Shown one piece after another: positions 1 to 60,581 of a stretch of DNA of 64,000 nucleotides; positions within the stretch are counted from its first letter, which is position 1; each line of letters starts with the position of its first letter. The translations under genes and the position numbers were made by a program. This DNA comes from an uncultured Poribacteria bacterium (GTDB lineage Bacteria > Poribacteria > WGA-4E > WGA-3G), in assembly GCA_958296135.2 (NCBI GenBank), contig CATQHZ020000001.1, positions 1,792,001-1,856,000 of the forward strand, written 5' to 3'. The notes under the pieces were generated by a model. The model saw only the letters and a list, made by a program, of their open reading frames with translations, was not told the origin of the DNA and did not search any database.

Positions 1-1060
1 TGGCATCCAAAACTGGTTGATGTAGTTTCCCGTTTGTTGCGACGATGCCGCGATTGTCAACCATCCGTCTGCCGGTAAGGAAATTCAGCGGTGCGCCGTT
101 TGCATCTGTCACCGTGCCGCCTGCCTCCTCAACGATGATGAGCCCGGCGGCGTGGTCCCAGATGCATTCGCGGTAATCCGGCGATGCTGGATTCGGGAGG
201 CGTAGGTAGACAGACGCTTCGCCACGCGCAACGATACCGTATTTCGCTTGACTGTCCATTTGCACCGGCGGCGCGGTGAGGCCGAGCCGAGTCGCGATCT
301 TCGCATGTGCATCGCTGTCGCCGTGTGAGGATTCAAAACTCTCTGCCAAACGGGGTGCCTCTGTTGAAACGCGCGCCTCTCCTAAAAAGGTGCCGGTAAG
401 CGAATACATTTCCGTTCCTTCACCACGGACAGCGACAAAAAGACATCCTTTTGTTGTTCGCGAGGCGGTGTTTGGCTGCGTTTTTGGATGGCCGGTTGAC
501 TTATTTTGGAAGGCCGGTGCAACACGAGGGACAGGCTCTTGCGCTACAGTTATTGGCTCGTCCAATCGATGCGGCAGATTTGGGCACGCGAGCACACCAA
601 GCGTTACTTCGCCGTCGACAATCCGCGCCAACGCAATCGCATACTGATCTCGGCGGAGGAAGCCTTTGGTGCCATCAATCGGGTCGAGCGTCCAAAAGGT
701 GTTCCCAACCGAACCGGTGCCTCTGTCAATCCATTCACAGACGTTTTCAGCCGAAGCGGCTGCGTCAAAATGGTTAACGTAAGCGGCGACACGTTTCAAA
801 AGCGGCGGGTTTGACTTGAGCGATGCCGCATCCTCTTCCGCCACGATAACGGATGCCGGGAACGCATCGCCGATAGCCTTGCATATTAGTGCTTGCGAAC
901 CGAAGTCTGCCACGGTGACAGGACTTCGATCGGTTTTTTGGATGGCATCTGTCGGCACCAAATCGGCTTGAACGTTTTGACACAACCTTGCCGCTTTTAG
1001 GACTGCGGCCATCGCAATTTTTTTGTTGTTCCTAGCAGTGGTTTGACATTGTCTTGGCAT
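1..1060 (-). CDS. 3'(2'),5'-bisphosphate nucleotidase, HAL2/inositol-monophosphatase family (3' end runs off the window)
   Basis: Not in the ORF track because the stop lies outside the window. Manual translation from ATG 1060 (RBS AGGAG upstream): [70 protein letters not shown], all HAL2/CysQ motifs. ATG 1012 is an alternative start. Confidence 0.9.
   Translation of the reverse strand, partial: MPRQCQTTARNNKKIAMAAVLKAARLCQNVQADLVPTDAIQKTDRSPVTVADFGSQALICKAIGDAFPASVIVAEEDAASLKSNPPLLKRVAAYVNHFDAAASAENVCEWIDRGTGSVGNTFWTLDPIDGTKGFLRRDQYAIALARIVDGEVTLGVLACPNLPHRLDEPITVAQEPVPRVAPAFQNKSTGHPKTQPNTASRTTKGCLFVAVRGEGTEMYSLTGTFLGEARVSTEAPRLAESFESSHGDSDAHAKIATRLGLTAPPVQMDSQAKYGIVARGEASVYLRLPNPASPDYRECIWDHAAGLIIVEEAGGTVTDANGAPLNFLTGRRMVDNRGIVATNGKLHQPVLDA
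449..504 (-). repeat. ~85-nt element, 3' part, in frame inside the HAL2 gene
   Basis: Minus strand ATAAGTCAAC..GCAGCCAAACACCGCCTCGCGAACAACAAAAGGATG. Confidence 0.75.
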
Positions 1061-1104
1061 TGTGTCTCCTCTTAGTAGGCCGTTTTGACGTTATCAAGTT
1101 TTGC
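1018..1104 (-). repeat. ~85-nt element spanning the HAL2 start
   Basis: Minus strand CTTGATAACGTCAAAACGGCCTACT..GTCAAACCACTGCTAGGAACAACAAAAAAA. Confidence 0.85.
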
Positions 1105-1204
1105 AGCTCCGAGCCAAATGTCTATAACGGTTGCAGTCCTACCGCGAAGCACGGCGAGGGACAGGTTTCCCGCGCCCTACGGAACTGGTGGCCGAGTGTT
1201 ATTT

Positions 1205-1233
1205 ACGATACCTGATTTCGCGAAGTTTGTCAA
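1205..1233 (-). promoter_or_regulatory. sigma70-type promoter for the nucleotidase gene
   Basis: Minus strand TTGACA-17 nt-TATCGT. Confidence 0.5.
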
Positions 1234-1236
1234 GTA

Positions 1237-1305
1237 TTTTTTTGTCATTCGCGAGGCGTTGTTCAGCTTCGTCGGGGTTGACAATGATGACTTTGCAGGG
1301 CTTGC
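1237..1305 (-). repeat. ~85-nt element, diverged copy
   Basis: Minus strand GTCAACCCCGACGAAGCTGAACAACGCCTCGCGAATGACAAAAAAA. Confidence 0.7.
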
Positions 1306-1351
1306 GCGGCGCGGGAAACCCTTGGCGATTCGCGCTCGCCGGCCCCTTGCC

Positions 1352-4300
1352 CTACGGACCAAGGGGCGATACGACAGACAACGCCTCGATTTCGGCGACA
1401 ATCCGAAGCGTTTCTGCCACCGAGACCAGGATGTGTTGATATTCCCGAATCTCCGTATGACTTAAGGCCGTGCCGCGCCGCTCCTTCAGCCACTTTTCAC
1501 AGACCTGATACGCACCGATTTCAAATTCCCAGACATCCACCGACACCTTGGCGAAGTGTTGCGTCTGATTCACCCAAATCTTGCCATCGCGGTAGCCATA
1601 CTTCGCGACAACCGCATCGCCTTCTCCCTCAAAACGGTATTGGGGTGTCATCGCGATTAGGAGGGTGCTCCTACCGAGATGCAGTTCAATCAAGGCACAC
1701 CCGAGCTCTGCCAATTTTCGGAATAAAGGGACATCGTCTATCAACGGAATGCGCGGGAAGTCGTATTTCAGAAAAGCGTAATAACGTTCGCGATAGGCGG
1801 GGCTATGCAAAATGGCATAGAGATAACCGAGGATGTCCTCTGCGGAAATTCCCGCCGGAAGTTCAAACGGCTCCGTCTGCAAAAGTCCCAGTTTCTCGGA
1901 AAGTGCCTTGAGAAAAGTTGGTTTGAGATTTACGGAACGTTCCGTTGATAACTCCAACTCCGCTGGATTTGGATAGAGATACAGCGGGAAGACGTGTCCC
2001 GATTCGCTCGCCCTATTTGAGATATGGCAATTTTCAGTCAGACAGTCGGTTACCAAGACATGCTGCCAAGCCGGGCTCGTGACAATGCGCGTGGTAGAAA
2101 GCGCGATATTGTCACCGGCGCGTAGGTGGCGCATCACCGCTCGGCGCGGACTCGAATGGAAGCCGCGGGACTTTCCTGTGTAGTAGGTCCAACGGACATC
2201 AAACGGACGGTAGCGCATACGGGTGACATGCTGTTCTACATCGGGATGGGCGCGGACATCAGCTTGGGCAGCAGCAACTGCCCAGTCACTTGTATCACGC
2301 GACAATCGGTACCTCTCCCTTACTTCGGTGTCAGAAAGGTTCACAAAATCGTTTACCGTGGCTCGGAGTTCCGCCTCAGTGCGATGGAGCGTCACTTTAT
2401 CACGGCCCGTGCAAATCCCCGTTGACTTCACTTGGAAGATATCGGGGAGTGCCCATCCTTGTTCATATTCCTCGCGGCGTTCTGTCTCTTGCGGTACGAA
2501 AAGGTAGAGCGGTGCCGTCGGCTGGAGTTCGCGCCATGCAGTCGTTTGGACATCCCTCTCCGCGAGCATTTGATATTTCTCTTCACGGGTACCCCATAGG
2601 TCTGCGTAATGGAGAGTAGCCGGGGCGGCGTTATCGGTTTCCTTGACACACAACAGAATAGTAATACCCTGCTGGATGTTAAACACACTTTCGTCTTTTT
2701 TCCCGACAGGAACCGCCTCTGCTTTTCGGGTGCTTCCGTGCAAGTTAAGCAAGTAAATTTCACTAAAACTGTTGAGCAAACTCTGCCGCATGCCACGGAA
2801 AATGGTGCCTTCCAGGAAACTGTTGTTGACGATATAGCCGATAACACCCTGGCCGCTCTTGTCAATCCGCCATTGTGCCCACCGAATGAACTTGACATAA
2901 TCCGCCTGAAGGGGTTGGAAATTTTCGCGTCCCATCGGCTTTCCATCTACCCGTTTGTAGTCCTCGATGAGTCTCCCGATGAAGGTGAGTTTGCCTCGCT
3001 CATCGCGGCTCGGCGTGGCAGAATTGCGAGGATAGGGAGGGTTCCCGATGACAGCCAGAATCGGGGCATCCCGTTTCACGGAAACTGCGGCGTTCGCCTC
3101 ATCGGAGATGAAGCCAGCAAATGCGAACCGCTCCTTTTCTTCGGGCTCCGCCAGCGTGTTGGTGAGGTAGATGCTGAGGCGTTCGCCATCTCGCTGTGTC
3201 CAGCCATTCGCCTGCAGAAAGAGACTCAGTTTGAAATGCGCAATAGTGTAGGGGGCCACCAAGATTTCAAACCCAGCAAGCCGTTGGACGAGGCTATCTT
3301 GAACATACTGCTGCCAGACACCGCCGCCATACGTCTCGGTGACGTGTTGCCGGATGTGGTTGATAACCGCTAAGAGGAAGCCGCCGGTGCCAGTTGCTGC
3401 ATCTAAAATGAGCGCGTCGTCATCGGCGAGGCCGTCAGGTTTACGCAGTTTCGTTTTGAGCAGTACATCAACAGAACGGACAATATAGGCAATAGCTTGC
3501 GGCGGTGTGTAATAGACACCCCTATCCATGCGGCGTTGCGCATCATACTCCGCGAGAAAGAGCTCGTAGAAATGGACAACCGGGTCTTCGATGTGGGTGC
3601 GGACATCAAAGGCAGTATGGAGCATCTCTGTAGAGACATTTCGCATAAGGTTGGCGATGTCGTCCAAGAGCCACGTGAGGTTGTTATCCACATTCGGGGA
3701 CGCTACCTGATAAAAGAGATTCCTAAGAAAAGGGTTGGAACGTGGTAGCGCGTCATAAGCGGTGATGCGTGAGAAGTTTGTCGCATTCGGGAGCGTGCAT
3801 CGCGCGGCAAAAAGCCCATAGGCCAGCGTCTGTGCATACATATCGGCAAAGTCTTCGGCTGTCAACGTAGAGAGAAGCAGTTTCTGGAATGCAGTAAACA
3901 TCTGCAAGATATCGTTCTGCTCATCGTGTAGCGTCGTCGCGATTTGGGTTTGGAGTTCTCGTGTGCGGCGCGCGAGGTATCTAGCAAGCACCTCCGGCGT
4001 TGCAAGCGGCATCGGACGCGCACTCAGGAAGCGTTCCAGCAGGTTTTCTAACGCCGCCGCGTCAGAAGAAAAAGCCGTTGCGCGCAAAGTGCTATCGGTA
4101 TACAACCGAAATTCAACAAAATTGGTGAGGACGAAGTTGTCAAGGTTGTCAATAAACCGCTGATTCTGGGTTTTGGCGTGCCCTGTGAGCGCGGCCAAGT
4201 CGGTGCCGTATGCTTCAGCCTCAACATAGCCGATAGGAAACAGCCCCTCCTTTGCGGCGAAATCTGGCCGCCCGATAGCAAGCGCAGCGCGCGGCTCATG

Positions 4301-4453
4301 CGTGAAGGTAATGTGCGGATGTGATGCTGCCGTCGCTGCGTCAAGGAACGCCTTCAGTGGTGCATGCAGCGAGAGTTCCGCTGTTGCCATCGGGCTAGTT
4401 CTGGCCGCATCAATGTCCTGCACATAGTCGTTAAGCAGCGTTTGGAATGTCAT
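1352..4453 (-). CDS. Fused restriction-modification enzyme: N6-adenine methyltransferase with type ISP-like C-terminal specificity domain and no helicase
   Basis: GVYYTP, motif I DAATGTGGFL, motif IV GNPPY, YRPFD, YDFPRIP, IGAYQVCEKWLKER; N-terminal RPDF..GYVEAE. Probable start is MTFQ at 4453; the track extension to 4561 reads through a repeat. Confidence 0.85.
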   Translation of the reverse strand: MTFQTLLNDYVQDIDAARTSPMATAELSLHAPLKAFLDAATAASHPHITFTHEPRAALAIGRPDFAAKEGLFPIGYVEAEAYGTDLAALTGHAKTQNQRFIDNLDNFVLTNFVEFRLYTDSTLRATAFSSDAAALENLLERFLSARPMPLATPEVLARYLARRTRELQTQIATTLHDEQNDILQMFTAFQKLLLSTLTAEDFADMYAQTLAYGLFAARCTLPNATNFSRITAYDALPRSNPFLRNLFYQVASPNVDNNLTWLLDDIANLMRNVSTEMLHTAFDVRTHIEDPVVHFYELFLAEYDAQRRMDRGVYYTPPQAIAYIVRSVDVLLKTKLRKPDGLADDDALILDAATGTGGFLLAVINHIRQHVTETYGGGVWQQYVQDSLVQRLAGFEILVAPYTIAHFKLSLFLQANGWTQRDGERLSIYLTNTLAEPEEKERFAFAGFISDEANAAVSVKRDAPILAVIGNPPYPRNSATPSRDERGKLTFIGRLIEDYKRVDGKPMGRENFQPLQADYVKFIRWAQWRIDKSGQGVIGYIVNNSFLEGTIFRGMRQSLLNSFSEIYLLNLHGSTRKAEAVPVGKKDESVFNIQQGITILLCVKETDNAAPATLHYADLWGTREEKYQMLAERDVQTTAWRELQPTAPLYLFVPQETERREEYEQGWALPDIFQVKSTGICTGRDKVTLHRTEAELRATVNDFVNLSDTEVRERYRLSRDTSDWAVAAAQADVRAHPDVEQHVTRMRYRPFDVRWTYYTGKSRGFHSSPRRAVMRHLRAGDNIALSTTRIVTSPAWQHVLVTDCLTENCHISNRASESGHVFPLYLYPNPAELELSTERSVNLKPTFLKALSEKLGLLQTEPFELPAGISAEDILGYLYAILHSPAYRERYYAFLKYDFPRIPLIDDVPLFRKLAELGCALIELHLGRSTLLIAMTPQYRFEGEGDAVVAKYGYRDGKIWVNQTQHFAKVSVDVWEFEIGAYQVCEKWLKERRGTALSHTEIREYQHILVSVAETLRIVAEIEALSVVSPLGP

Positions 4454-4557
4454 TGTCCGAGTCCTGAAGAGATGCCCACTGCGTAGCGCGAGGGACAGGC
4501 CCGCGCGAACCCTCGACAACAAAAAACCGCCGCGAGGAGGGGGCCGAAACCCAAAAA

Positions 4558-5223
4558 TCAAAAAAGCGTTAACTGCGGCGGTTCATCTGTCTCGCGAACC
4601 TCGCGCGTCGATTGCAAACACGCACTGCAACGTCGCTGTGCCTCGGCGATGTCATCGATGAGGATGTGTCGCGTGGCAGTGAAAGTTTCTCCCTCTTGGC
4701 GGAGGACGTAGGCCGGGTTAAACGTCGCCATCGCGAACGGCGCGTATCGCGTATCCTTAAACCAGATACCGCGTTCCTCCGTAATGCGGAATTGCCGATG
4801 AATCAGCGTTTTTGCCGCGGGGCTGCCCATGCACAAAATCACGGAAGGTTGGATGAGGCTCAGTTCCACATCCAGCCATTTAGCACACGCCTTGATTTCT
4901 AATGCTTTCGGCGGCCGGTTTTTTAGCACGCCATCTCTGATGCCAGCCGCCCGACATTTGATGATGTTCGTCAGCCAGATATTCCCGCGCGTCAAACCGT
5001 TCGCAGCGAGCACTTCATCCAACAGTTCCCCGGCAGGCCCTGAAAACGGAAACGTCGTCTGATTATCGGCAGCGGAGGGGCCTTCAGCGACGATAGCTAA
5101 TTTCGCTTCGACATCTCCGCTGCCGAAGACGACGTTGGCGCGGGTTTCTGACAAACCGCAATCGGTGCAAACGCTTGCACGCGCTTTGATGCCCTGCATT
5201 TGTGTGTGAATTGTGCTCATCAT
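4558..5223 (-). CDS. Uracil-DNA glycosylase family 4-like Fe-S protein with altered motifs
   Basis: CTDCGL, VVFGSG, EGP, F-x-G-x-AG, TNIIKCR, NRPP..C. Confidence 0.85.
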   Translation of the reverse strand: MMSTIHTQMQGIKARASVCTDCGLSETRANVVFGSGDVEAKLAIVAEGPSAADNQTTFPFSGPAGELLDEVLAANGLTRGNIWLTNIIKCRAAGIRDGVLKNRPPKALEIKACAKWLDVELSLIQPSVILCMGSPAAKTLIHRQFRITEERGIWFKDTRYAPFAMATFNPAYVLRQEGETFTATRHILIDDIAEAQRRCSACLQSTREVRETDEPPQLTLF

Positions 5224-5230: not shown

Positions 5231-7981
5231 CTACAAAGAGGACACTCTGCTTATACCCGAGGTCTTCGCAAACTGGATGTGGGCATGGATGAGCGTCTTC
5301 GTCGGACCGAAGGTTACCTGACAGATAGGTTTGTCCCAGCGATAGTGATACTCACTCCCGTAAGCGGATACTCCTGTCGGCAAGTAATTCTCCGGAACGT
5401 GAATGAAGCAGGTGCCTTCCGTTTGTCTGAGAGGCTTGCACACGAGCAGGTAACTTTGGTTTTGCCTGTCCCATCCGGCGGATAGAATCTCAACGCTTCC
5501 CTGCGTCCAGTGCATATCTGTGGCAAGTAGTTGCGGCACGTTCTGTTCTTCCCGCAAACAGAGCAGTTTCACCGAGCGCGGCGGGATGTTCAGCAATGTG
5601 ACGTTTTCAGACACGGTGCCAAGGTATTGGCGCATCCAAAAATCGTGGACGAGGTAGTCCTTAGATTTCGGAAGCCCAAGCGCGTCTAATTCAAAGTCAA
5701 CATCGTCCTCGTGGTCTGCCCAATTAAACACTGCGGCCAGGTGCCACGTTTCAGCCACATCTCGCGGCGAACTGCAAGGTTTGACAACGTCAAGAAGGCC
5801 TGGCAGCGAGATGTCCCAGCTTCGGTTATCCACCCCGAACGCATCGCGACATACAGAGAGACTCCAAATTCGGGGGAACGGTTCGTCGTAGAGCCCTATG
5901 GGTTTCGCCGCCGCGCCGGTAAGAGGGAAGAGTTTCGCCAAGAGTTCTGCCCGGTACGGTTTCAGCGTCGCGAGGGAATCGGAACAAAAGACTGCCCCGC
6001 CGCTGATGGCAGCGGCTGTCATCTCAACGATTGCCTCGTTGACAGGACGCGGCTCGTCAACCGCGAGTTCGCCGAAAACGTGATTCCACAACGTATTATG
6101 CTCACTCTGGTGGATGGCGTATCGGCTCATTCGGTGCTTCGTGCCGTTTGGGTGATGCCAGGGGCGGCTTTCATTTGCAGCGTCAGCCCCAGCAACCTGT
6201 CCGGCAAGCGGTGAATTGAGCGCGAAACTACCGATGCAGGGAGCAGCAATCACATTGTATCCAGCGAGAAGCACCTCTGTGGTAGGACTCGCGTCGGCTA
6301 CGGCTTCTTTGAGCACCTGAACGGCTAACCGATAAAGTTGCACTGAGGTAAGCGTGTTATCATACCATGTCACATTGTGCGGCGAAGACAGCACCGTGGT
6401 ATACGCGGAAAAGTCTGCCTGAATGAGTTCACATCCCCATTCGGCAACTATCCGTTGGACCTGCAGGCGAACATGAGCTTGCGCATCGGGATGTGAAACG
6501 TCCAACAAGGCGACTTTGGCGTTTCCACTCCCCGGCAGCAGCACCGCCGTAGGCGCGTTTCGGGAGCGCGCATCCGAACCCCGATTAGGGCGATTGTGCT
6601 GCCTGCCAGCACCTCCCCTCTTGTTCCCTCCGGTCGGGCGAAAAAACCTTTTTCCATCAGGTTCCAGCACTTGTAAGCAGCAGTCAGGATATCTCTGTAG
6701 CAACTCCGAGTCCAGCGCGGCGCAAAACGGATTTATTCGGATAGCCGCTTTGAACCCTTTCGCGTGAATGTGATTCACAATTTTTTGCATGTACGCGGGG
6801 CGTTCGGCGTGCATCTCTGGTGCAGAGACGGTTGCCTTACTGTTACGCCGAAACGCTGTCATCTCTGCCGGTTTTCCTGCAGAGATGTCCACTGTGCCAT
6901 CCTTGACGTTGTCAATGACTACGCTTGCGCTGTCAGCATCGGAATCAGCATTCGTTTCCGTAGCATCAATCTGGATGTATTCGATGCCGCCGGGGCAGTG
7001 TGGATGAAAGAGCGGGCTTTCCGCTAGCCGGTCTGCCTGCTCCAAGATGACATTCGCATTCGGCGAAGTGTTTTCAGCACTCGCGTCCACCAAATCAAGA
7101 AGATGCCACGCTCCGACAACCTGCCGAGTCGTTTGCGCGCCGTTCTGCGCCGCCACCAACTCGGTATAGTCGCGATACGCTGCTGCAGCCCTGTCAGTGA
7201 AATTGAGATAGACAGCATCTGAAGTCACCTCTTCACCTGCCTGACACGGATGCTGTTCGCACCGGTGATAGAGGGACCAGCGGTTAATCCCCGGCGACTC
7301 TTTTCCTACCACTTGATGGCCGACTTGAACCTGCGGCCACCATTTTTCAGTTGTTAGAAAGCCGAATACGAGTGCTCTTTGACTGTCTGTATCGTGAAGG
7401 ATACCACTCTGACACGGATGACTCGCCTCGGTTTCGCTGAGCCGAAACCCGTCGTAGAGTTTGCGACACCCGCCGGGAAATGTGGGCGGCGTGTTCGTGA
7501 AAAGATGATACGCCGAAGGTTTCCCACCGAGTTGCACTGCGCCGCGATTAGTTGAGATGCCGAGCAGCGTGACGCTGTCTAGTTCAATAGGGACAGGTTC
7601 TAGGTTTTCAACACCTACCCTCAACACGATATAAGGCGCATCGGGAAAGCAGTTGAGATACGTGTTGAGCCGGATGCCCTTTTCGGTGGCTTCGTAAGAA
7701 AACCGGATCTGGCGCGCGTCTTGAACGGCAGACCGACCGCGGGGGACAAGTCCTCGCGCTACGGTAGGGAGCGGTTCCGTGAAAAATTCGCGAGTGCCAG
7801 CGTCCTCCGTTGACACCGTGCTTCCATCGTGGAGTGTTATTTGTGTGCAGCCGTTCTTGATAATTGTCTGGCCGGTTCCATCAATGTAATCCCATGTCCC
7901 TTTTGCGAGATTGAACTTAATCTGAAATTTTTCGTGGTTTATCACGGCGAGGTTCCCCTGCCGTGAGACAGCTATTTCCAT
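5231..7981 (-). CDS. Alpha-galactosidase-like (GH36/GH27 clan) protein with several repeat-derived insertions
   Basis: YIQID, HAKGFKAAI..PF, LDVSHPDAQ, WGCELIQADF, C-terminal AVFNW..VHDFW..IPPRSVKLL. Confidence 0.65.
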   Translation of the reverse strand: MEIAVSRQGNLAVINHEKFQIKFNLAKGTWDYIDGTGQTIIKNGCTQITLHDGSTVSTEDAGTREFFTEPLPTVARGLVPRGRSAVQDARQIRFSYEATEKGIRLNTYLNCFPDAPYIVLRVGVENLEPVPIELDSVTLLGISTNRGAVQLGGKPSAYHLFTNTPPTFPGGCRKLYDGFRLSETEASHPCQSGILHDTDSQRALVFGFLTTEKWWPQVQVGHQVVGKESPGINRWSLYHRCEQHPCQAGEEVTSDAVYLNFTDRAAAAYRDYTELVAAQNGAQTTRQVVGAWHLLDLVDASAENTSPNANVILEQADRLAESPLFHPHCPGGIEYIQIDATETNADSDADSASVVIDNVKDGTVDISAGKPAEMTAFRRNSKATVSAPEMHAERPAYMQKIVNHIHAKGFKAAIRINPFCAALDSELLQRYPDCCLQVLEPDGKRFFRPTGGNKRGGAGRQHNRPNRGSDARSRNAPTAVLLPGSGNAKVALLDVSHPDAQAHVRLQVQRIVAEWGCELIQADFSAYTTVLSSPHNVTWYDNTLTSVQLYRLAVQVLKEAVADASPTTEVLLAGYNVIAAPCIGSFALNSPLAGQVAGADAANESRPWHHPNGTKHRMSRYAIHQSEHNTLWNHVFGELAVDEPRPVNEAIVEMTAAAISGGAVFCSDSLATLKPYRAELLAKLFPLTGAAAKPIGLYDEPFPRIWSLSVCRDAFGVDNRSWDISLPGLLDVVKPCSSPRDVAETWHLAAVFNWADHEDDVDFELDALGLPKSKDYLVHDFWMRQYLGTVSENVTLLNIPPRSVKLLCLREEQNVPQLLATDMHWTQGSVEILSAGWDRQNQSYLLVCKPLRQTEGTCFIHVPENYLPTGVSAYGSEYHYRWDKPICQVTFGPTKTLIHAHIQFAKTSGISRVSSL
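5774..5803 (+). repeat. Element 5' palindrome, antisense within the GH36-like CDS
   Basis: GCAAGGTTTGACAACGTCAAGAAGGCCTGG, translated as PGLLDVVKPC. Confidence 0.75.
6896..6919 (-). repeat. Element 5' palindrome within the GH36-like CDS
   Basis: Minus strand GTCATTGACAACGTCAAGGATGGC, translated as VIDNVKDG. Confidence 0.6.
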
Positions 7982-8126: not shown

Positions 8127-8167
8127 ACGTGCTTTTGCCGCTTTCGCGTTTTGCACTGTGCGCGATT

Positions 8168-9528: not shown

Positions 9529-9533
9529 CCATG

Positions 9534-9557: not shown

Positions 9558-9601
9558 GGTGTGGGGCCGGCACGGCAGAGGACAAATCCCCTGTACGGTG
9601 A

Positions 9602-53072: not shown

Positions 53073-53134
53073 TTTTTCTCCTTTTCGGATTCATGAAAAC
53101 AAGTCTTCTTTTGGTTGGACGAAACAACATTATA

Positions 53135-53227
53135 TAGTATAAACAAAAATTGCAAAAAAAGCAAATTTATTTTGCGATGTGTCAAATGAATTTAGAAGTT
53201 GATAACTTTAAGAACCTATGCTAAAAT
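53135..53227. promoter_or_regulatory. Divergent promoters in an AT-rich spacer
   Basis: Plus strand TTGATA-17 nt-TAAAAT (53199-53227); minus strand TTGCTT-17 nt-TATACT. Confidence 0.55.
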
Positions 53228-53302
53228 TATCCTCAAATCAACCAGAAACTATCGCGCAGTTAAAACCGCGCCACGCACGAACAGAATTCAGCCATAAAAA
53301 AT

Positions 53303-55276
53303 ATGAAATCTCCAAACACATCGCGAATCCCGGCGCACGGGGTTACCTTCAAATCTGTCAGCATCGCCGCGCTTTTAATACCGATTAACTGCTATTGGGT
53401 GATTGAAATGGAGGTAATCCGCTATTCAGGGCACCCCGTCACCATTTCCCTCTTTTTCAATGTTATTTTTAGCTTGTTTGTCGTTATCGGCGCGAACGAA
53501 CTGTTCAAGCGGTTTTTGCCGACGCTGGCCTTGGCACAAAGCGAGCTCGTCATCGTTTATCTGATGCTGTCGATTGCGTCAGGGATTACCGGGCACGACA
53601 TGCTGGAAATTCTGGTGCCGATGCTCGGGCACGCCTTCCGCTTTGCTACCGCGGAAAATGAGTGGCAACAACTGTTCGTGCCGTTTCTTCCGAAATGGCT
53701 CACCGTAAGCGATAGCCAACTCTTACAAGGCTACTACGAGGGCGAGCTGCCGCTCTACACCGGCGAGACACTGCTCGGATGGGCAACGCCTGTGCTTTGG
53801 TGGACAGCATTCATTACCGTCCTCATCTTCGGCATGCTGTGCATCAATATCATCGTCCGGAAGCAATGGATTGAACATGAGAAATTGAGTTACCCTATCA
53901 TTCAACTCCCGTTGCAGATGTCGCAATCGGGGCTCACAAGCGGTTCACTGGTAGCGCCGCAGCAGCACCGCTTTTTCCGGAACAAGTTGATGTGGCTCGG
54001 TTTTGGCATCGCGGGCGCGCTCGCGCTGTGGAACGGCGTGAATTTCCTGTATCCGATTTTACCAGAATTGCGGACGCGCGTGCGGAGTTTTCAGGTTTTC
54101 ACGGAGAGCCCCTGGAATGCGATGGGAGGGATTCCGTTTTCGCTTTATCCGTTTGCGATAGGGCTCGGGTTCTTTATCCCGTTGGATCTTTCGTTTTCGT
54201 GTTGGTTTTTCTTTTGGTACTGGCGATTCATGCGCGTCGTGGGTGCCGCCATCGGCATGCGGAGTTTGCCGCGTTTTCCGTATATGAACGAACAAGCGTC
54301 CGGCGGCTACCTCGCCTTGTGCGTTTTGGCAATCTGGGCAAGTCGTCGGCATCTTTTGCAGATTGGGAGAACGGTTATCGGCCTGCATACCGATTCCGTT
54401 CGCGATGATTCAGACGGCCCGATGTCCTATCGCGCCGCGGTGCTTTGCCTCATCGGGGTGATGGCATTCCTCGTGCTTTTCTGCTACTACGGCGGTGCGG
54501 AAATTTGGGTGATGTTTATCTTTTTCGTCATTTACTATATGATTTCCATCGCTGTCACGCGTATGCGCGCCGAGTTAGGCACCCCCGTGCATGACTTGCA
54601 CTATTCCGGCCCCGACGAAATTCTGACACGGACAGTTGGAACACGCAGATTGGGCAGAGATAACCTCGTCATGTTCTCCATGTTCTGGTTCATCAATCGC
54701 GCCTACCGGAGCCATCCAATGCCGCATCAACTAGAAGGGTTCAAGATTATGGAGCGCGCAAACATGACGATGTATCGGATTATCTTTGCTTTGACGCTCG
54801 CCGCGGTGTTAGGTTCACTGGCAGGATTCTGGGCACTAATCGACAGAGGATATCGGTTAGGCATGGAGGTACGCGCCTATTGGCCCTCCCTTAGTGCGTT
54901 CGGGATAGAACCCTATCGCCGGCTCAGCGGCTGGTTGCAAGCCCCAGAAGAGACTTTGATTGCCGAAAGCGGGTTTATGGGACTCGGTTTCTTGCTCACA
55001 ACGGTTCTCATGTTATTTCGGATGCGGTTCGTGTGGTGGCCCTTTCACCCTGCCGGATTCGCCATTTCCACGAGTTGGGGCATGAACGTCACGTGGAGCT
55101 GCCTCTTCATGAGTTGGCTGATTAAGATGCTCATCCTCCAATACGGTGGTGTGGTGCGGCATCGGAAAATAGCCCCCTTCTTTTTAGGACTGATTTTGGG
55201 CGAGTTTACCGTCGGTAGCCTCTGGACAATTATCGGTATCATCGCGGGCATCCCTACCTACGGCTTCTGGGTTTAA
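53303..55276 (+). CDS. Polytopic membrane protein, DUF6785/DUF6784 (putative peptide transporter-like)
   Basis: RKQWIEHEKLSYP, WWPFHPAG, PFFLGLILGE; many TM helices. Confidence 0.8.
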   Translation: MKSPNTSRIPAHGVTFKSVSIAALLIPINCYWVIEMEVIRYSGHPVTISLFFNVIFSLFVVIGANELFKRFLPTLALAQSELVIVYLMLSIASGITGHDMLEILVPMLGHAFRFATAENEWQQLFVPFLPKWLTVSDSQLLQGYYEGELPLYTGETLLGWATPVLWWTAFITVLIFGMLCINIIVRKQWIEHEKLSYPIIQLPLQMSQSGLTSGSLVAPQQHRFFRNKLMWLGFGIAGALALWNGVNFLYPILPELRTRVRSFQVFTESPWNAMGGIPFSLYPFAIGLGFFIPLDLSFSCWFFFWYWRFMRVVGAAIGMRSLPRFPYMNEQASGGYLALCVLAIWASRRHLLQIGRTVIGLHTDSVRDDSDGPMSYRAAVLCLIGVMAFLVLFCYYGGAEIWVMFIFFVIYYMISIAVTRMRAELGTPVHDLHYSGPDEILTRTVGTRRLGRDNLVMFSMFWFINRAYRSHPMPHQLEGFKIMERANMTMYRIIFALTLAAVLGSLAGFWALIDRGYRLGMEVRAYWPSLSAFGIEPYRRLSGWLQAPEETLIAESGFMGLGFLLTTVLMLFRMRFVWWPFHPAGFAISTSWGMNVTWSCLFMSWLIKMLILQYGGVVRHRKIAPFFLGLILGEFTVGSLWTIIGIIAGIPTYGFWV

Positions 55277-55353
55277 TTGTATTGGCGCGAAGCAGTCGGT
55301 GCCTGTCAAAAGGAGCACGCTTGCAAAGCGCGCCTCCTGCTAGAAAAATATAA

Positions 55354-58284
55354 CTATTCCCGGTGCGGGCGCGGATTAATCGCCAAATTGAGCGGCAAGA
55401 GGAACAAGGTGAAACTAAACAGAAGCGTCCATTGCCACTCCCATTTCAACGGTGTCAGCCCTATAAGTTCGCTGATAGGTGTGACATAGAGCGCGGCGAG
55501 GTGAAGCCCGATAATGACAAGGAAGATTATGAGCAGTCTTGTGTTAGCGAACATCCGCTGAAAAAGCGACTCCCATGGATACCGTAGGGCCTGCCAGCAT
55601 GTTGCTAATTGGGTGAAAATCAGCATAGTAGCAACCATCGTGCGAGCAATTGCCACTTCCGAATCCTCTAAATCTGAACGCCACAGCATAAAGAAAAACG
55701 GAATCAGTGACATCAAACTGATAGTTACGCCGCGGCAAACGATGTCTAATCCGGCGATTTTCGGCAGAAATCGCGAGACAGAGAACATGGCGGGCCGGTG
55801 GTACTTTTCATCGGCGAATATCTGTTCGCATCCGGCACCGAAGGTGGGAAACAGACTGACGAGCAGTTGCACCCACGCAACCTGGGGGAACGTCAGCGGC
55901 ATCGGCAGGTGATAGACATAGTGCAGAATTGTGCCAAAAACGAGGGTGAGCGGCAGTGCCAGCGTGCACGAAAGCCCCCACCGTATTGAGCCAGCCAAGT
56001 TTTGGTAAGCCTCGCGCGCGTGAAGCAGGCCGTCCCGCACCGCACGGAAGCCTCTTTTCAGAATGAGCCCATCGCTCTGGGCTTGTGCTATGTCTGAGGC
56101 ATCTTGTCTGTTTGCAAAAGCGATATCCGCAGCCATCATAGCGCGAAGATCTGTGCCGGATTCCCCTAAAAAACCGACGGTATGCCCGTGGCGTTTCAGC
56201 CCGAAAACAATGCCGCGCCGCTGTTCCCGGTTCGGCTGTGAATAGGCTAGACACTTGCGCACCTTCTCGTCCAATGCCTCACGAGAAAGCGAGTCAAGCA
56301 CTTCTCTGGACGCAACCGCCTTTCCGGTGTGAATCAGACCGAGGGCTTTCGCCAGCACGCCTGTTTGTTGTTCATCGCGCTCGGTGATGAGGATGATTTT
56401 GAGCCCGGTGTCAAGGCTGGATTTGACAACCGCTTTCGTTTCCTCGTCATCGCTGACAGAAAAAGCGATGAAGCCTAGGAACGTTGAACCTGCCGCCATA
56501 TCCTGCGGCGTGAGCATCACTTCCGAAGATTGCGACGCGACCCCGTAAACATCGCCTAGAGCCCTTTGCGAGGACAGGCTCTGGAGGTAGGCAAGTGCAT
56601 CCCGATACTGATGATACCGTTCGTCTTGCAAGTGTATCACCTCACCTTGCGTGAGCGTGAAGTCACACACATCCAACACTTTTTGTGCCTCCCCAAAGAT
56701 GATATTCAAGTAGTTTTCATCGCCGGACTCAAGCACGCCCATCTGATACCCGTAGCGAGATGTCCACGGGTACTCATTGACAAGCGGGAGATTCGCTTTT
56801 AAATCCTTCAGTTCATAGCCGAGCCGCTGTAGCTGCTTTTGGAGAACTCGCCGGGGCGATGTGTCTTCATCGCTCCTTTTGCCGAGTTGATGCCGTTTCC
56901 CTGACACGCCGAGTGCTGCTGTCAATACCAATCCTGCAGCACTCGGCGGAATTTGGCTATGATGGCCCGCAGCCTGAATTGCGTTGACAGCTTGTTTCTT
57001 TTCTTCAACCGATAGGTTCTGAAGGGAGCGCAGCCACGCATTCCAAGTTGTTTCCTCAACGAGTTGTTCATCAACGAACATATAAGAGAGCGCGAGGGCA
57101 CGGGTGGTAGAAAGGCCCTTCTCATTTGCACAAAAAGTTGTGATACGGCTCAATTTTTCAAGGGAACGCGGATTGCGAAGGGCCACCCCTTTTTTCAGCA
57201 ATTCTCTGGCGTGTTGCGAGAAATTCAATCGAATCAGGGAAACGGCATCTTGCGGCGCAGCGGCGAGAATGAAGAGGACACCGAGGTGCAGCAGCGCAAA
57301 CCAGTCTTTCCCCTGGTCTTCGGCATCAACCCACCACGCTATCGCGACAACTAATCCCGCGACACATACGCCGGCTATTTTGATGAGGTTGTGCAGGAAT
57401 TTCAGTTCGCCTTCTGCGTAAGTCGTCGCGTCCGGGGTTGGCCGTGCGTTTGGACGTTGCTTCCAAAATTCAGTCTGTTTTCCTATCTGCACGACAATCG
57501 CTTGCCCACTGCCCACCTCCACGTAGGTTCCGGCAAATACCATGTTTTTCTGTTTTTCGGGAGGGATAGATGTTGCAGCACCTTCGCCGCCTGCAGGTTC
57601 GTCCGAAAGGGTATCACTTGTCTTTTGCACGGGGTCCTCTGTGCCGAATAGCCCAGCTTCGTCAATCAGGAGTCCATCAGCTTCAACGATTCTGGCATCA
57701 GCCGGAATGTAGTCACCGGTGCTAACCGAGATTAAGTCACCCGGGACAATGTCCTGCGGCGGACACTTTTCGAGCTTGCCTTGCCGGATAACTTGGACGC
57801 TGAGCCCTAAATGCTCATGAATCTGCTCTTCTCGGCGCCGGATGCAGTATTCGGAGAAGCACGCCCATCCGATATGCAAAATGAGCATCGCGCCGAGGAC
57901 ACCCGCGGCGGTTTTTGCCTGCGGGGCAGCGACAAGTGAAAGTTCTGGCCTAATGAAGGGGACAATTAAGACAGCAGTTGCCACGGCAAACACCAACACT
58001 CGCCAGCTCAGCATCGATTTCAAAAAGGCGGCGAACTGTCCCGTTTTTTGCGTCGCCCCCAGTTCGTTTTTGCCGTGTCGCGCGCGCGCCTTTTGCAAGG
58101 CATCAAGACTCAACCCTTGTTCCAAGTCGCTGTTAAATTGATTCAATATTGATGAAATGCCATTCGCGTAAAACTTTGACATCGGTTTTTCGTGTTCTTC
58201 TGTTTTTCGCAATGCGTTGTTCAGCCGCTTTTGTGCTGCCAACCTTGTCTCACTAAGCCGCATCGTCGTTGGCGATGTTTGCAT
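55354..58284 (-). CDS. P-type (IIA/IIC-like) ATPase homologue lacking catalytic motifs
   Basis: Topology, HGKNEL, VPGD..GDYIPADAR and FAGT are retained; DKTGT, TGES, TGD and GDGxND are replaced. The start may be MSKF at 58182. Confidence 0.85.
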   Translation of the reverse strand: MQTSPTTMRLSETRLAAQKRLNNALRKTEEHEKPMSKFYANGISSILNQFNSDLEQGLSLDALQKARARHGKNELGATQKTGQFAAFLKSMLSWRVLVFAVATAVLIVPFIRPELSLVAAPQAKTAAGVLGAMLILHIGWACFSEYCIRRREEQIHEHLGLSVQVIRQGKLEKCPPQDIVPGDLISVSTGDYIPADARIVEADGLLIDEAGLFGTEDPVQKTSDTLSDEPAGGEGAATSIPPEKQKNMVFAGTYVEVGSGQAIVVQIGKQTEFWKQRPNARPTPDATTYAEGELKFLHNLIKIAGVCVAGLVVAIAWWVDAEDQGKDWFALLHLGVLFILAAAPQDAVSLIRLNFSQHARELLKKGVALRNPRSLEKLSRITTFCANEKGLSTTRALALSYMFVDEQLVEETTWNAWLRSLQNLSVEEKKQAVNAIQAAGHHSQIPPSAAGLVLTAALGVSGKRHQLGKRSDEDTSPRRVLQKQLQRLGYELKDLKANLPLVNEYPWTSRYGYQMGVLESGDENYLNIIFGEAQKVLDVCDFTLTQGEVIHLQDERYHQYRDALAYLQSLSSQRALGDVYGVASQSSEVMLTPQDMAAGSTFLGFIAFSVSDDEETKAVVKSSLDTGLKIILITERDEQQTGVLAKALGLIHTGKAVASREVLDSLSREALDEKVRKCLAYSQPNREQRRGIVFGLKRHGHTVGFLGESGTDLRAMMAADIAFANRQDASDIAQAQSDGLILKRGFRAVRDGLLHAREAYQNLAGSIRWGLSCTLALPLTLVFGTILHYVYHLPMPLTFPQVAWVQLLVSLFPTFGAGCEQIFADEKYHRPAMFSVSRFLPKIAGLDIVCRGVTISLMSLIPFFFMLWRSDLEDSEVAIARTMVATMLIFTQLATCWQALRYPWESLFQRMFANTRLLIIFLVIIGLHLAALYVTPISELIGLTPLKWEWQWTLLFSFTLFLLPLNLAINPRPHRE
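58197..58228 (-). repeat. Element 3' end at the 5' end of the P-type ATPase-like gene
   Basis: Minus strand GCGGCTGAACAACGCATTGCGAAAAACAGAAG. Confidence 0.65.
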
Positions 58285-58293
58285 ATGCCTCTA

Positions 58294-59214
58294 TCATTCA
58301 GAAGATATGATTGCGGCCCCTCGGGTATCCGGATCCAGAATTTTCATCTCGCATTGAATGTGATGGTTTTTGAAAGCGGCCTGCATCTCTTGCGCAATTT
58401 GTGGTGCGAGTTGTCTGTAACAATATGCTGCCAAGGTCGGTCCTGCGCCACTCAGTGCGACGCTGAAAGCACCGGCATCCACAGCCGCTGCCGCTACCTC
58501 ATCAAACCCGGGAATCAACGTGGCACGGTAGGGCTGATGCAACCGGTCTTTCATCGCAACCTCTAACAAGCTTAACTTTCCGGTGGCGATGGCGGCGACT
58601 AACATCGAACTGCGACTGGTATTGTAAATCGCGTCAGCAAGTGCCACTGTGGTAGGCAGCACGCTGCGCGCCTGTTGCGTAGAAAGTGTGAAGTTTGGAA
58701 TCGCTAGCACCACAGCAAGTTCCTCCGGGCACTGCAACTGAATTGTGTAGACATGCCCGGCTTCCTGTGTACAGACAACCAGGCCGCCGTGCAAAGAAGC
58801 CGCAACGTTATCTGGGTGCCCCTCCAGTTCTGTTGCGAAGTTGAGCAGTGTCTGCAAAGGAAACGCTGTGGCGCACAATTCATTCGCTGTTAGCAAGCCG
58901 CCGAGGATGGCTGTGCCGCTGCCGCCCAACCCGCGAATCGCGGGGATGCCGTTGTCTATTGACAATCTCAAGCCTGGCGGGATTTCCGTGCCGCTCCGTT
59001 TGAAAACCAGTGCCGCCGCTTGAAACGCGAGGTGCTCGGTGGTGCTCGGGATTTTATCAGCGTCAACTCCCGTGACAACTACCTCAACACCGGGCGTTTC
59101 TGTCACTTCCAGCGTTACTGTGCTATAGAGTTTCAACGCGAGCCCGAGCACATCAAAGCCAGGGCCAAGGTTGGTTGTGCTGGCTGGCATACGTGCTACC
59201 GCTTTACGTGACAT
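58294..59214 (-). CDS. thrB: Homoserine kinase
   Basis: PASTTNLGPGFD, RGLGGSG, EGHPDN, DRLHQPYR, LSGAGPT. Confidence 0.95.
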   Translation of the reverse strand: MSRKAVARMPASTTNLGPGFDVLGLALKLYSTVTLEVTETPGVEVVVTGVDADKIPSTTEHLAFQAAALVFKRSGTEIPPGLRLSIDNGIPAIRGLGGSGTAILGGLLTANELCATAFPLQTLLNFATELEGHPDNVAASLHGGLVVCTQEAGHVYTIQLQCPEELAVVLAIPNFTLSTQQARSVLPTTVALADAIYNTSRSSMLVAAIATGKLSLLEVAMKDRLHQPYRATLIPGFDEVAAAAVDAGAFSVALSGAGPTLAAYCYRQLAPQIAQEMQAAFKNHHIQCEMKILDPDTRGAAIISSE

Positions 59215-59304
59215 AGAAAGTTCCTTGAGCACTGGTAGGCGCGCAATTGGAAAACCGCTCGGTGCAAATCGCGCCTACCGGGTTCATCTTGCGTCAATTT
59301 TGTG

Positions 59305-60477
59305 CTACAACTTCGCAATAGCCGTTTCCATTCGGCCGAGTGCCTCTTGTATGTTCTCCAACGAATTTGCATACGAGAGTCGAAGGTAGCCATCGCCATA
59401 TTTACCGAAGGATGTGCCAGGCAACAGCGCGACACCGGCTTCATCCATCAGATAATCGGCGAGGGGCTCACACCCCATGGGCAGCTGCGTCACGTTCGGG
59501 AACACATAGAACGCGCCAAGCGGCTGGATACAACTGACACCTTCAAGCGCGTTCAATCCGCCCACGATGCCGTCCCGCCGTCGCTGAAATTCGGCTACCA
59601 TCTCCGTGACAGAGTCTTGCGGGCCCGTCAGTGCCTCTATACCAGCGATTTGCGTAAACGTGGCGGTGCAAGAATTCGAGTTAATCGTCAACCGCGTAAT
59701 TTTGTCTGCAATCGCCTGTGGGGCGATGCCGTAGCCCAACCGCCATCCCGTCATCGCGTACGTCTTTGAGTGCCCTTCGATGAGGATAGTCCGCTCCTTC
59801 ATACCGGGGAGGCTGAGAATACTCAGATGCGTACCTTCGTAAAGGATGCGCGAGTAGACCTCATCAGTAAGCACATAAAAATTGTGTTTCTGCGCGAGTT
59901 CGGCGATGGCCCCGAGGTCTTCCGCCGTGAGCGTGCCGCCGGTCGGATTCTGTGGTGAGTTGAGAATCAGGAGTTTTGTGCGCGTAGAGATGGCCGCCTC
60001 GAGGTCTTCGATGCGGAAGCGGAAACCGACTTCCTCGCGCAGCAGCAGCGGCACCGCTTTTCCACCAATGAAATCAATGACAGATTCGTAGACAGGGAAG
60101 CCGGGTTCGGGATAGATAACCTCATCGCCTTCGTCAATCAGGGCCAAAATGGTGAAGAAGATGATAGGCTTCGCACCGGGGGTGACGGTGACTTCATCGG
60201 GGTGGATAGTCACGCCGCGTGTGTCCGTGATGTGCTGCGCGACAACCTCGCGAAATTCGGGCAAACCTGCGGAAGGACCGTAGCCGGTCTGGCCGTCCTT
60301 CATTGCCTTAAATGCCGCCTCACAGATATTCATGGGTGTCGGGAAATCCGGTTGCCCGATTTCAAGGTGAATGATGTCTCTACCTTGCGCCTCTAACCCT
60401 TTGGCTTTCGCGAGTACCTCGAATGCAGACTCGGTTCCCAGGCGACTCATCCGCTCAGCGAATGTGTGTGTTTCCAA
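59305..60477 (-). CDS. PLP-dependent aminotransferase class I/II (aspartate aminotransferase-like)
   Basis: GQPDF, NSPQNPTG, DEVY, SKTYAMTGWRLG; TTG start after AGGAG. Confidence 0.93.
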   Translation of the reverse strand: METHTFAERMSRLGTESAFEVLAKAKGLEAQGRDIIHLEIGQPDFPTPMNICEAAFKAMKDGQTGYGPSAGLPEFREVVAQHITDTRGVTIHPDEVTVTPGAKPIIFFTILALIDEGDEVIYPEPGFPVYESVIDFIGGKAVPLLLREEVGFRFRIEDLEAAISTRTKLLILNSPQNPTGGTLTAEDLGAIAELAQKHNFYVLTDEVYSRILYEGTHLSILSLPGMKERTILIEGHSKTYAMTGWRLGYGIAPQAIADKITRLTINSNSCTATFTQIAGIEALTGPQDSVTEMVAEFQRRRDGIVGGLNALEGVSCIQPLGAFYVFPNVTQLPMGCEPLADYLMDEAGVALLPGTSFGKYGDGYLRLSYANSLENIQEALGRMETAIAKL

Positions 60478-60496
60478 AATGGTGTCTCCTAACGAA

Positions 60497-60581
60497 TTTT
60501 TGTTATTCCTAGCGGTGGTTCAGCTGCGACTGTGCAGAGAACGTTGGTTTACCGGCCCGTCTTGACTTTGTCAAGACTTGC
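60497..60581 (-). repeat. Most complete uninterrupted ~85-nt element
   Basis: Minus strand CAAGTCTTGACAAAGTCAAGACGGGCCGGTAAACCAACGTTCTCTGCACAGTCGCAGCTGAACCACCGCTAGGAATAACAAAAA. Confidence 0.9.

Follow-up and report, generated by a model that had tools for sequence, protein, structure and literature searches.

A gene-start repeat of about 95 nt with promoter-like and leader features, dispersed in one genus of Candidatus Poribacteria

Introduction

The closest described concept to the repeat reported here is that of the putative mobile promoters (PMPs), reportedly put forward by Matus-Garcia, Nijveen and van Passel in 2012. Our subject is an oriented element of ~95 nt, with a hairpin in its 5' part and an A-rich tract at its 3' end. 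Its copies are dispersed over a stretch of 64,000 nucleotides from an uncultured Poribacteria bacterium (hereafter the window) and over the genome from which this stretch was taken (G000; 5.19 Mb in four contigs, with the window at positions 1792001-1856000 of contig C1). Like the element, PMPs are homologous non-coding DNA in front of unrelated genes, without any hallmark of mobility and with a proposed regulatory role. They are recognised as stretches of 50 nt or more that share at least 80% identity and stand upstream of non-homologous genes, and most of their families are pairs, with ~92% identity in the region from -150 to -50 (commentary PMC3575422). In contrast, the element has ~160 members with a mean identity of 59%, in one genus only, and it reaches the start codon, with a covarying hairpin and a leader that appears to replace the Shine-Dalgarno (SD) sequence. 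The region from -150 to -50 would take in only its 5' half.

Correia elements have terminal inverted repeats (TIRs) and a TA duplication, and insert in either orientation. They resemble the element in being small, high-copy, non-coding, often co-transcribed and sometimes overlapping with open reading frames (ORFs), and in supplying promoters, as the element may do. In Neisseria, Correia elements carry promoters (PMC3575422). The element differs from them by its single internal 5' palindrome, the absence of a duplication and its strict orientation. Repetitive extragenic palindromic (REP) sequences and REPINs share with the element short palindromes, compensatory stems, hundreds of copies and a lineage-specific distribution. 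In contrast to these, the element has no GTAG head, is three times longer, is directional and stands at gene starts instead of gene ends. G000 has REPs of its own, which are separate from the element, and some of them are inserted into element copies.

IS200/IS605 elements have neither TIRs nor target duplications; the shape of hairpins near both ends is recognised, and the Y1 transposase TnpA is needed. Unlike derivatives of such elements, our repeat has one conserved hairpin (90-95% paired) and a second helix that is 58% paired and not terminal, and no TnpA was found in G000 beyond two RAYT-like genes. Rickettsia palindromic elements can sit in frame inside a protein-coding gene. They resemble a copy in the linker of mutL, the one clear case of this kind in the window, whereas the bulk of our family is intergenic and at gene starts. 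We would place the element with the promoter-bearing intergenic repeats.

Other assignments were considered and rejected. The element is not one of the miniature inverted-repeat transposable elements, since it lacks TIRs at both ends and a target-site duplication, and not part of a REP/REPIN-RAYT system, since it lacks the GTAG head and no copies flank a RAYT gene. A retroposon resembling short interspersed nuclear elements (SINEs) does not agree with the absence of matches to the reverse transcriptase domain RVT_1 in the three carrier genomes, the fixed tail and the absence of duplications. A known cis-regulatory RNA of Rfam was rejected as well, because there was no covariance model match.

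We think that the element is best explained as a genus-specific cassette of a promoter and an SD-independent leader that was copied around and is now kept by selection, and we would give this explanation about an even chance of being right.

A dispersed family in one genus

An nhmmer profile seeded with ten window copies and then iterated over the whole genome gave 285 matches at E<10 and 162-163 at our significance cut-off of E<=1e-3. All significant matches were on C1, the 5.0-Mb contig. The reversed genome, used as a control, gave one match at E<10 and none at E<=1e-3. In the window itself there were 21 matches at E<10 with nhmmer and 16 at E<=1e-3 with a covariance model of the element. 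The 22-nt 5' palindrome of the original prediction, made from the letters of the window alone, had four window matches at up to three mismatches, compared to none in 100 shuffles, and an all-against-all repeat search of the window recovered the 3' and 5' parts as families D3-D7 and D15 (5-7 copies). The existence of a dispersed family, as first proposed there, is confirmed; its copy number is high and it is real far beyond chance. Judged by the model positions that they cover, 116 of the 163 hits are full copies, 14 consist of the 3' part only, 5 of the 5' part only, and 28 are partial in other ways.

From the 19 sites listed in the original prediction, 17 were supported. The covariance model matched 14 of them (449, 1018, 1237, 9464, 12315, 13570, 35933, 41006, 43031, 46288, 49831, 50771, 58197 and 60497), nhmmer matched 5774 and 46546 (E 3.8e-4 and 7.9e-4), and 7982 was recovered as a 3' end. 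At this last site the 20-nt 3' end is real, while the 5' hairpin sits at 8099-8128, parted from it by REP insertions. Sites 6896 and 27220 turned out to be short fragments only, visible by eye or in the repeat search (I7). Conversely, the full copy at 47170-47265 had been missed, and so had the hairpin half of a split copy (43206-43242) and a weak copy (37716-37788).

Our searches bear out the earlier view that the family has not been described. Rfam gave no match at the gathering score in the window and none at E<=1 on 12 copies, BLAST against plasmids and phages gave no match to the element, and searches of the literature on Poribacteria repeats or mobile elements and on prokaryotic mobile promoters gave no paper that describes it in its title or abstract start.

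In a set of 185,579 species (one genome each), the exact 22-mer was present in just two further records, both of them metagenome-assembled genomes of Candidatus Poribacteria, and had no match in JGI metagenome contigs. Covariance model matches were present in all three genomes of the genus (132, 122 and 78), which are G000 and the genomes of the other two species, G001 and G002. In other genera of the family, 2 of 16 genomes had one marginal match each (E ~5e-4), and the 12 genomes from three other families of the order had none. The pattern of the 3' module was found 41, 38 and 19 times in the genus, compared to 0-5 times in 17 other genomes and 0-6 times in controls. The element is essentially restricted to one genus of Candidatus Poribacteria, which are sponge symbionts; this result and those on conservation below rest on three genomes of one uncultured genus. 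The idea that the 3' module is the native leader of the whole taxonomic family was rejected, because its pattern is confined to the genus.

Anatomy of the unit

The unit is ~95 nt long and oriented, with a sharp 5' edge and no conservation further upstream (97 copies). The repeat proposed originally was real, yet its length of ~85 nt was too short, as conservation begins 8 nt 5' of the base then taken as the first. From 5' to 3', the unit consists of an 8-nt lead-in CCAGAnA, the motif YGYAAG, an 8-bp hairpin (hairpin 1), GGCCTG-N-TAAG(A/T)C, ~25 variable bases, a 3' module and a CA/A-rich tract. The conserved palindrome is internal, at unit positions 5-23, and the A-rich tract that forms the 3' end has a fixed length and is interrupted (AACAACAAAAA). 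Two 3' sub-types, described before from the window, were recovered as type B in 61 and type A in 34 of 105 copies, with 10 unclear.

Hairpin 1 has an 8-bp stem with an AAC loop. Its inner GACAACGTC is conserved, its 5' arm is mostly TTGACA, and its outer stem positions vary in compensating pairs. For instance, one stem pair is T-A in 31, A-T in 21 and C-G in 17 of the 105 near-full copies. An unselected mutual-information scan of these 105 copies returned exactly the stem pairs as its top pairs. Among 69 distinct copies from three genomes, in an alignment that was fitted to the model and hence leans towards structure, pairing holds in 95% of the stem cells, and both partners vary in 7 of the 8 pairs. 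Doubly changed stem cells number 78 in these copies, compared to 17.2 in shuffles, and sliding the stem partner by 1-3 columns lowers the pairing to 24-42%. Mismatches of the G.U and A.C type are equally frequent in hairpin 1 (30 and 28, respectively), and the data therefore do not separate an RNA hairpin from a hairpin of single-stranded DNA.

In some copies the variable stretch holds a second hairpin, which is also compensated (CAGCTGC/GCAGCTG, CCGCTGC/GCAGCGG, CATCATC/GATGATG). As a general feature of the family this hairpin 2 was rejected, because only 58% of the cells are paired in 27 hand-picked copies; it is frequent, not universal. The 3' half had a mean folding z of -0.86 over 40 copies, calculated from match columns only and hence on slightly altered sequences. 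In RNA folds, hairpins 1 and 2 form with a free tail in 5 of 8 copies, and the A-rich end is unpaired in all eight. A short candidate hairpin 3 has the form CGC-NNN-GCG or CC-GCTA-GG.

The 3' module is repeated two to three times in tandem before the start codon (CGAACGCCTCGCGAAAGACGAA units) in the G002 orthologue of 50768-50864, at G000:C1:571402-571488 and at C1:3969840-3969960. Such arrays hint at slippage, or at unequal exchange, inside the leader.

Gene starts and the probable translation leader

For 94 of the 163 copies, an ORF of at least 100 amino acids begins within 60 nt downstream; on the antisense side this is so for 32 of 163, and among random positions for 34.5%. Among the 140 copies with an intact 3' end, the ORF start lies within 4 nt in 59, at 5-30 nt in 28 and at 31-60 nt in 18. 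Where relatives can be aligned, similarity starts at the same ATG at which the element ends. The ATG was nevertheless rejected as a part of the element, since it stands at the model end in 50 of the 84 copies followed by an ORF of at least 100 amino acids, against 10 of the 56 that are not.

The orientation of the copies is strict. Neighbouring copies form five divergent pairs and several tandem arrays, and no convergent pairs. In two of the five divergent pairs, ORFs of at least 97 amino acids start ~80 nt or less from the element ends on both sides, and the elements occupy most of the intergenic space. A hairpin shared by the two members of the overlapping divergent pair at C1:4188823-4188963 had been considered, but found no support in the sequence.

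Element-led genes often start without an SD sequence. By crude home-made gene calls with ATG starts, GGAG or GAGG is present at -18 to -4 in 16% of the element-led genes compared to 50% of the others, while GA[AC]NNACNAAA stands before the start in 32% of the element-led genes compared to 0.9% of the others. The 16S rRNA keeps the normal CCTCC end, i.e., its anti-SD sequence. Where a spacer separates the copy from the gene, this spacer often holds a native AGGAG. Conversely, relatives have a plain SD sequence at several sites where G000 has the element: TAGGAG before a MoxR gene, GGAGG before an AP-endonuclease-like gene, and GGAG with a GTG start at 449. The A-rich tail of the original prediction is the stretch that abuts the start codon, not a tail left by retroposition.

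Resemblance to promoters

The tRNA promoters of G000 consist of an A/T-rich tract and TTGACA-N14-TGnGG-TATAAT. In the element, GGCCTG-N-TAAG stands 17 bp after TTGACA, matching the place of TGnGG-TATAAT in the tRNA promoters. At least five of the six letters of TTGACA are matched in 79 of 105 copies, with a spacer of 17 bp. The extended -10 place holds TG in 71 of the same copies, position 2 of the -10 is an A in 77, and TA is present in 53. Judged by this layout, the cassette may represent a weak or conditional sigma-70-type promoter. The leader reading appears better grounded than the promoter reading.

Two full copies, at G000:C1:2052660-2052750 and C1:4124038-4124125, have a canonical promoter directly after them and no ORF. 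There may be unannotated RNA genes downstream of these two copies.

Gain, decay and conservation between species

The three species are syntenic at the window, with ~81-85% DNA identity in genes. Eleven window loci could be compared, and the species do not all have the element at the same ones. Six loci have the element in G000 only: 449, 5773 (its hairpin part, compared with G002 only), 7982/8099, 12315, 43031 and 47170. Two loci (58194 and 60494) are shared in the 3' module only, and three (13567, 49830 and 50768) are shared.

The cleanest case of gain is moaC. In G001 and G002 the site is empty, and the upstream kinase gene overlaps moaC by an ATGA stop/start. In G000 the element is present and the upstream kinase ORF ends inside its hairpin. 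In 17 genomes of other genera, the spacer before moaC ranges from -4 to ~150 nt (with the first in-frame start taken by script), and outside the genus the covariance model gave no more than the two marginal matches mentioned above. This is a clean gain.

Comparisons were also made in the opposite direction. For 11 of the best copies of G001 and G002, the corresponding sites of G000 hold an element of the same orientation in three cases and an inverted one in two; at the other six G000 has none, a weak match on the opposite strand or a decayed remnant. Of 20 further G002 copies, 15 are syntenic, and here G000 has a significant element at six, a weak remnant at three and none at six. Several alleles that would count as empty retain only TAGGAACAAC...ATG. 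Contigs from four DNA runs (one sample), compared with window 41001-61000, revealed no empty allele; these contigs break at the repeat, and the only joints, with sides under 31 letters, were other family copies.

Among 105 copies the mean pairwise identity is 59% and the median identity to the nearest neighbour 76%, while a neighbour of at least 80% identity over 86 columns exists for 31 copies. By these values, the family is old. Six orthologous pairs are 58-95% identical, whereas identity over the preceding 100 nt is 42-48% in four of these pairs. Orthologous copies are thus conserved far above the flanking non-coding DNA; they are under purifying selection and are not junk.

Mode of spread and candidate enzymes

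The original prediction had seen no TIRs, target duplication or transposase in the window, in agreement with our repeat searches, Pfam searches and comparisons of filled and empty sites. It had proposed a non-autonomous mobile unit, either with an HUH/IS200-like hairpin end or RNA-mediated. Mobility is supported, in the broad sense only, by gains at new sites (moaC, the mutL linker and others), but neither of the two named mechanisms is supported. For the first, only two weak Y1_Tnp/HUH matches were found in G000, both RAYT-like and both flanked by REPs of the GTAG..GGGACAGGCCC type, i.e., tied to a different repeat family. No element copies lie within 3 kb of these two genes. For the second, no RVT_1 was found in any of the three carriers of the element.

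The classical REP family of G000 has a GTAG head and a GGGGACAGGCCCCCGC-type palindrome, and its core GGGAC[AT]GG occurs 1,199 times in C1. REP copies were seen in the window at 7739-7772, 9534-9567, 13605-13636, 39889-39922, 41962-41995 and 52254-52288, and elsewhere at G000:C1:4790715 and 4792328. They flank one RAYT-like Y1_Tnp gene (C1:4791155-4791397), and a second REP variant flanks the other RAYT-like gene (C1:3734478-3734807). A REP core stands within 90 nt upstream of 6 of 127 element copies compared to 1.8% of random windows, which is a weak association.

A proposed copied cassette of promoter and leader

In our preferred explanation, oriented cassettes of ~95 nt would supply the 5' control region of ~100 genes per genome. 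Each would provide a weak or conditional promoter of the sigma-70 type and, after it, a leader that begins with a stem-loop and has in its A-rich tract an SD-independent landing site for ribosomes. Copies would have spread as DNA to new sites, where the outcome is demonstrated and the route is our proposal. Many copies would then have been held by purifying selection, as demonstrated for the six orthologous pairs, and the remaining copies would have decayed and left the 3' module behind. What matters in the hairpin would be its structure, which would serve either the spreading of copies or their regulatory role. The original prediction had named a reiterated cis-regulatory module as an alternative to a mobile unit; the gene-pointing orientation, the layout of the house promoter, the replacement of the SD sequence and the conservation of orthologues all favour such a module.

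Several observations weigh against this explanation. With regard to promoter activity, the sixth place of the -10-like box is a T in only 7 of 105 copies, as the hexamer ends in C, and its best-kept letters are AAG, unlike the T-A...T of a -10. A consensus promoter scan of 41001-61000 gave no site on any copy's TTGACA-N17-TAAG box, and a search for RNA runs that cover 41001-51000 returned none. Roughly a quarter of the copies have lost TTGACA through compensated stem variants (26 of 105 have at most four matches). At least two copies precede a canonical TTGACA/TTGCCA-N17-TATnAT promoter of their own. With regard to the leader, an ORF of at least 50 amino acids is lacking within 60 nt of 35 of the 140 copies whose 3' end is intact. 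With regard to spread, we found no mobilising enzyme for the element, and no target duplication at the filled/empty pairs moaC, L112, L036, L097 and w5773; the junction at L112 shows a TAG microhomology only. Some of the 'empty' sites are decayed copies; at L033, for instance, a copy has decayed by deletion. Near-identical dispersed copies were not found either, as a neighbour with 90% identity or more exists for only 7 of the 105 copies, and tandem duplicates are among these. The low identity, together with the lack of a mobilising enzyme and of a target duplication, means that no case is made for recent mobility. Furthermore, exact abutment to the start codon with loss of the native SD sequence fits no mode of transposition known to us. 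Possibly, this abutment arose via microhomology with an A-rich stretch before the ATG, or by insertion followed by selected deletion.

A bolder version of the preferred explanation would make the element a new class of mobile DNA. It would be a 'gene-start cassette' of hairpin, promoter and leader, which is copied as a single strand in dependence on its hairpin, inserts at the start codon or is cut back to it, and takes the place of the native ribosome-binding site, so that 3-4% of the genes of the genus would have moved from SD-led initiation to initiation led by an A-rich leader. We consider this version rather improbable.

Alternative explanations

A different view of the same data is that the element is a pure RNA module without a promoter of its own, transcribed from upstream as an intercistronic or 5'-UTR (untranslated region) cassette. 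The role of hairpin 1 would be to shield the message before it or to flag a site of processing, while SD-independent translation would be brought about by hairpin 2 together with the A-rich tract. The covariation of hairpin 1 resembles that of base pairs, the -10-like box is poor, and hairpins 1 and 2 form with a free tail in five of the eight folds mentioned above. Moreover, the moaC copy stands at what is an operon junction in the relatives, and 80 of 163 copies lie between co-directional genes. This last number is a rough figure, as our home-made gene caller (3,879 genes) is crude and mis-called several loci; for instance, a copy before an ORF of 298 amino acids was labelled 'convergent'. 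However, the equal numbers of G.U and A.C mismatches give no RNA signal that is specific for a strand, hairpin 2 is paired in just 58% of the cells, and Rfam matched no copy even at E<=1. There is also no conserved upstream sequence able to be a promoter, and in the divergent pairs the elements themselves take up most of the intergenic space. The register with the house promoter (TTGACA, 17 bp, TG, TA) would have to be a coincidence. A pure RNA module therefore seems to us a fairly unlikely account of the family.

Somewhat less probable still is a selfish, non-autonomous DNA transposon whose 5' hairpin is recognised by a single-strand enzyme, HUH-type or other, that resides elsewhere or has been lost, with regulatory effects as by-products. 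The hairpin conserved as a structure, its conserved loop and the sharp 5' edge would fit such an origin, as would the high copy number limited to the genus, the tandem arrays, the gains at new sites, the in-frame copy in the mutL linker and a 54-nt insertion in an ORF that consists of the hairpin only. Yet a second end structure, TIRs and target duplications are lacking. The Y1_Tnp matches of G000 go with a different, REP family, G001 has no Y1_Tnp match and the relative G005 has 34 without any element. For neutral insertions, strict gene orientation and abutment to the start codon are unexpected, and the copies are old, judging from their mean identity of 59%, with orthologues that are under purifying selection.

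The palindrome might alternatively be the operator of one dimeric transcription factor that governs a large regulon, with the remainder of the unit being a convergent promoter grammar. A conserved inner GACAACGTC palindrome over the -35 region and the location of copies upstream of genes would suit an operator, but compensating outer stem pairs (T-A, A-T, C-G) are not predicted by protein-DNA recognition. Similarity spans 95 nt in a fixed order with a sharp edge, the downstream genes have no common theme, some copies lie inside ORFs, and the whole family, including the 3' module, is missing from sister genera that have the same genes. We regard a regulon as very unlikely.

Finally, retroposition through RNA, which like that of SINEs would leave an A tail and truncated 5' ends, is hardly credible, for although the 3' end is A-rich and 3'-only remnants outnumber 5'-only ones (14 vs 5), the former would be expected where selection acts on the translation-start region, the tract is of fixed length and interrupted, target duplications are absent, and the RVT_1 search, positive in 3 of 14 control genomes, was negative in G000, G001 and G002 (completeness 95, 86 and 94%).

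Copies in the window

The copies are described here from the high to the low coordinates of the window. All are on the minus strand except the two for which the plus strand is given, and scores in bits are those of the covariance model. The best copy (60494-60588; 93.2 bits, nhmmer E 6e-18) is full, with a type-A 3' module, and is followed by 46 nt with a native AGGAG and then by an aminotransferase gene. In its RNA fold (z -5.29), hairpins 1 and 2 form. At this site, relatives have kept only a type-B 3' module. A full type-B copy with a variant, compensated stem (GCATCGCC..GACGATGC) precedes a P-type ATPase gene (58194-58289; 67.3 bits), where relatives have only a 3' end resembling GCGAAC-N-ACGAAAA-ATG. 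Another full type-B copy abuts the ATG of a methyltransferase gene (50768-50864; 71.5 bits); here all three species have the element, with differing sub-families and a tandem triplication of the 3' module in G002. The element is likewise present in all three species at 49830-49906 (32.9 bits), where the copy has lost the 3' arm of its hairpin by an internal deletion and precedes a Pyr_redox_2 gene.

The full copy between a gene for an FGGY-like kinase and moaC is located at 47170-47265 (62.5 bits). It is followed by a partial copy on the plus strand that covers model positions 33-79 (46542-46588; nhmmer E 7.9e-4) and by a diverged copy at 46278-46375 (47.1 bits, E 1.4e-10). A split copy, found with nhmmer and the covariance model, abuts the ATG of the MoxR ATPase gene (43028-43242), with its 3' part at 43028-43117 and its hairpin part at 43206-43242; relatives have the native TAGGAG-type SD sequence instead. 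An insert of ~120 nt (43086-43205), with short TIRs (TACCAAAT...ATTTGGTA) and a REP-like core, splits this copy between GGCCTG and TAAG. The type-A copy at 41004-41098 (50.2 bits) lacks a good 5' hairpin arm, and a full type-A copy at 35930-36024 (74 bits) abuts the ATG of a gene for a TPR protein (identified by Pfam).

Two copies are associated with mutL. At 13567-13621 (28.1 bits) only the 3' module abuts the mutL ATG; AGGAACAACAAAAAATG is retained there in all three species, with REPs upstream. At 12315-12409 (80.7 bits) a full copy lies in frame within the mutL ORF, in the linker between the Pfam domains DNA_mis_repair and MutL_C; the linker of G001 and G002 is about as long but unrelated. 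A copy with a shortened middle abuts the ATG of an RsmD-like methyltransferase gene (9462-9537; 34.1 bits), and the Pfam match of this protein begins at residue 1. The copy split by REP insertions, matched by nhmmer, spans 7982-8128, with its 3' end at 7982-8000 and its hairpin part at 8099-8128; the whole ~150 nt are missing in G001 and G002. On the plus strand, a hairpin module lies within an ORF of 916 amino acids and antisense to it (5773-5855; nhmmer E 3.8e-4), where G002 is shorter by exactly 54 nt (18 codons). The remaining copies are a partial type-B copy consisting of the 3' two thirds (1236-1312; 38.6 bits), a full type-A copy (1017-1111; 74 bits) and a second partial type-B copy of the 3' two thirds, which abuts an ATG (449-504; 27.2 bits) and has a GGAG-type SD sequence and a GTG start as its counterpart in relatives.

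According to Pfam, the window genes after copies encode RsmD-like, MutL, TPR, MoxR, MoaC and thioredoxin-reductase-like proteins, methyltransferases, a P-type ATPase and an aminotransferase. These downstream genes are functionally unrelated.

Other features of the window and genome

A second type of palindromic repeat (GTAGGCGCGC...GCGCGCCTAC) was seen at 20759-20799 and 60605-60645 of the window and at the relatives' loci L093 and L097; it is intergenic and present in all three species. At 16058-18168, a GFO_IDH_MocA oxidoreductase gene is tandemly duplicated with a period of 1,068 bp, and its copies are 93-99% identical. Two large genes of the restriction-modification type lie within 20 kb of each other (1352-4561 and 20803-24006), namely one of Type ISP, whose product has N6_Mtase and specificity domains, and one for an Eco57I-like methylase. 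Contig C2 of G000 (143,886 bases) has a G+C content of 36.8% compared to 54.4% for the chromosome, and is free of copies of the element. Possibly it is a replicon of foreign origin, or it was binned with this genome by mistake.

Implications

A compensated hairpin with a fixed loop points to a genus-specific partner, which could be a protein or a process at the RNA level. If our preferred explanation is true, the family would provide a large and clean natural case of the reuse of a promoter and leader, with ~100 unrelated genes led by one unit. It would also be a natural experiment on SD-independent initiation in a bacterium with a normal anti-SD sequence. Furthermore, the element is a compact candidate expression part for an uncultured phylum without genetic tools. 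For the annotation of these genomes, it could mark true start codons, and it would account for many of the ribosome-binding sites that seem to be 'missing'.

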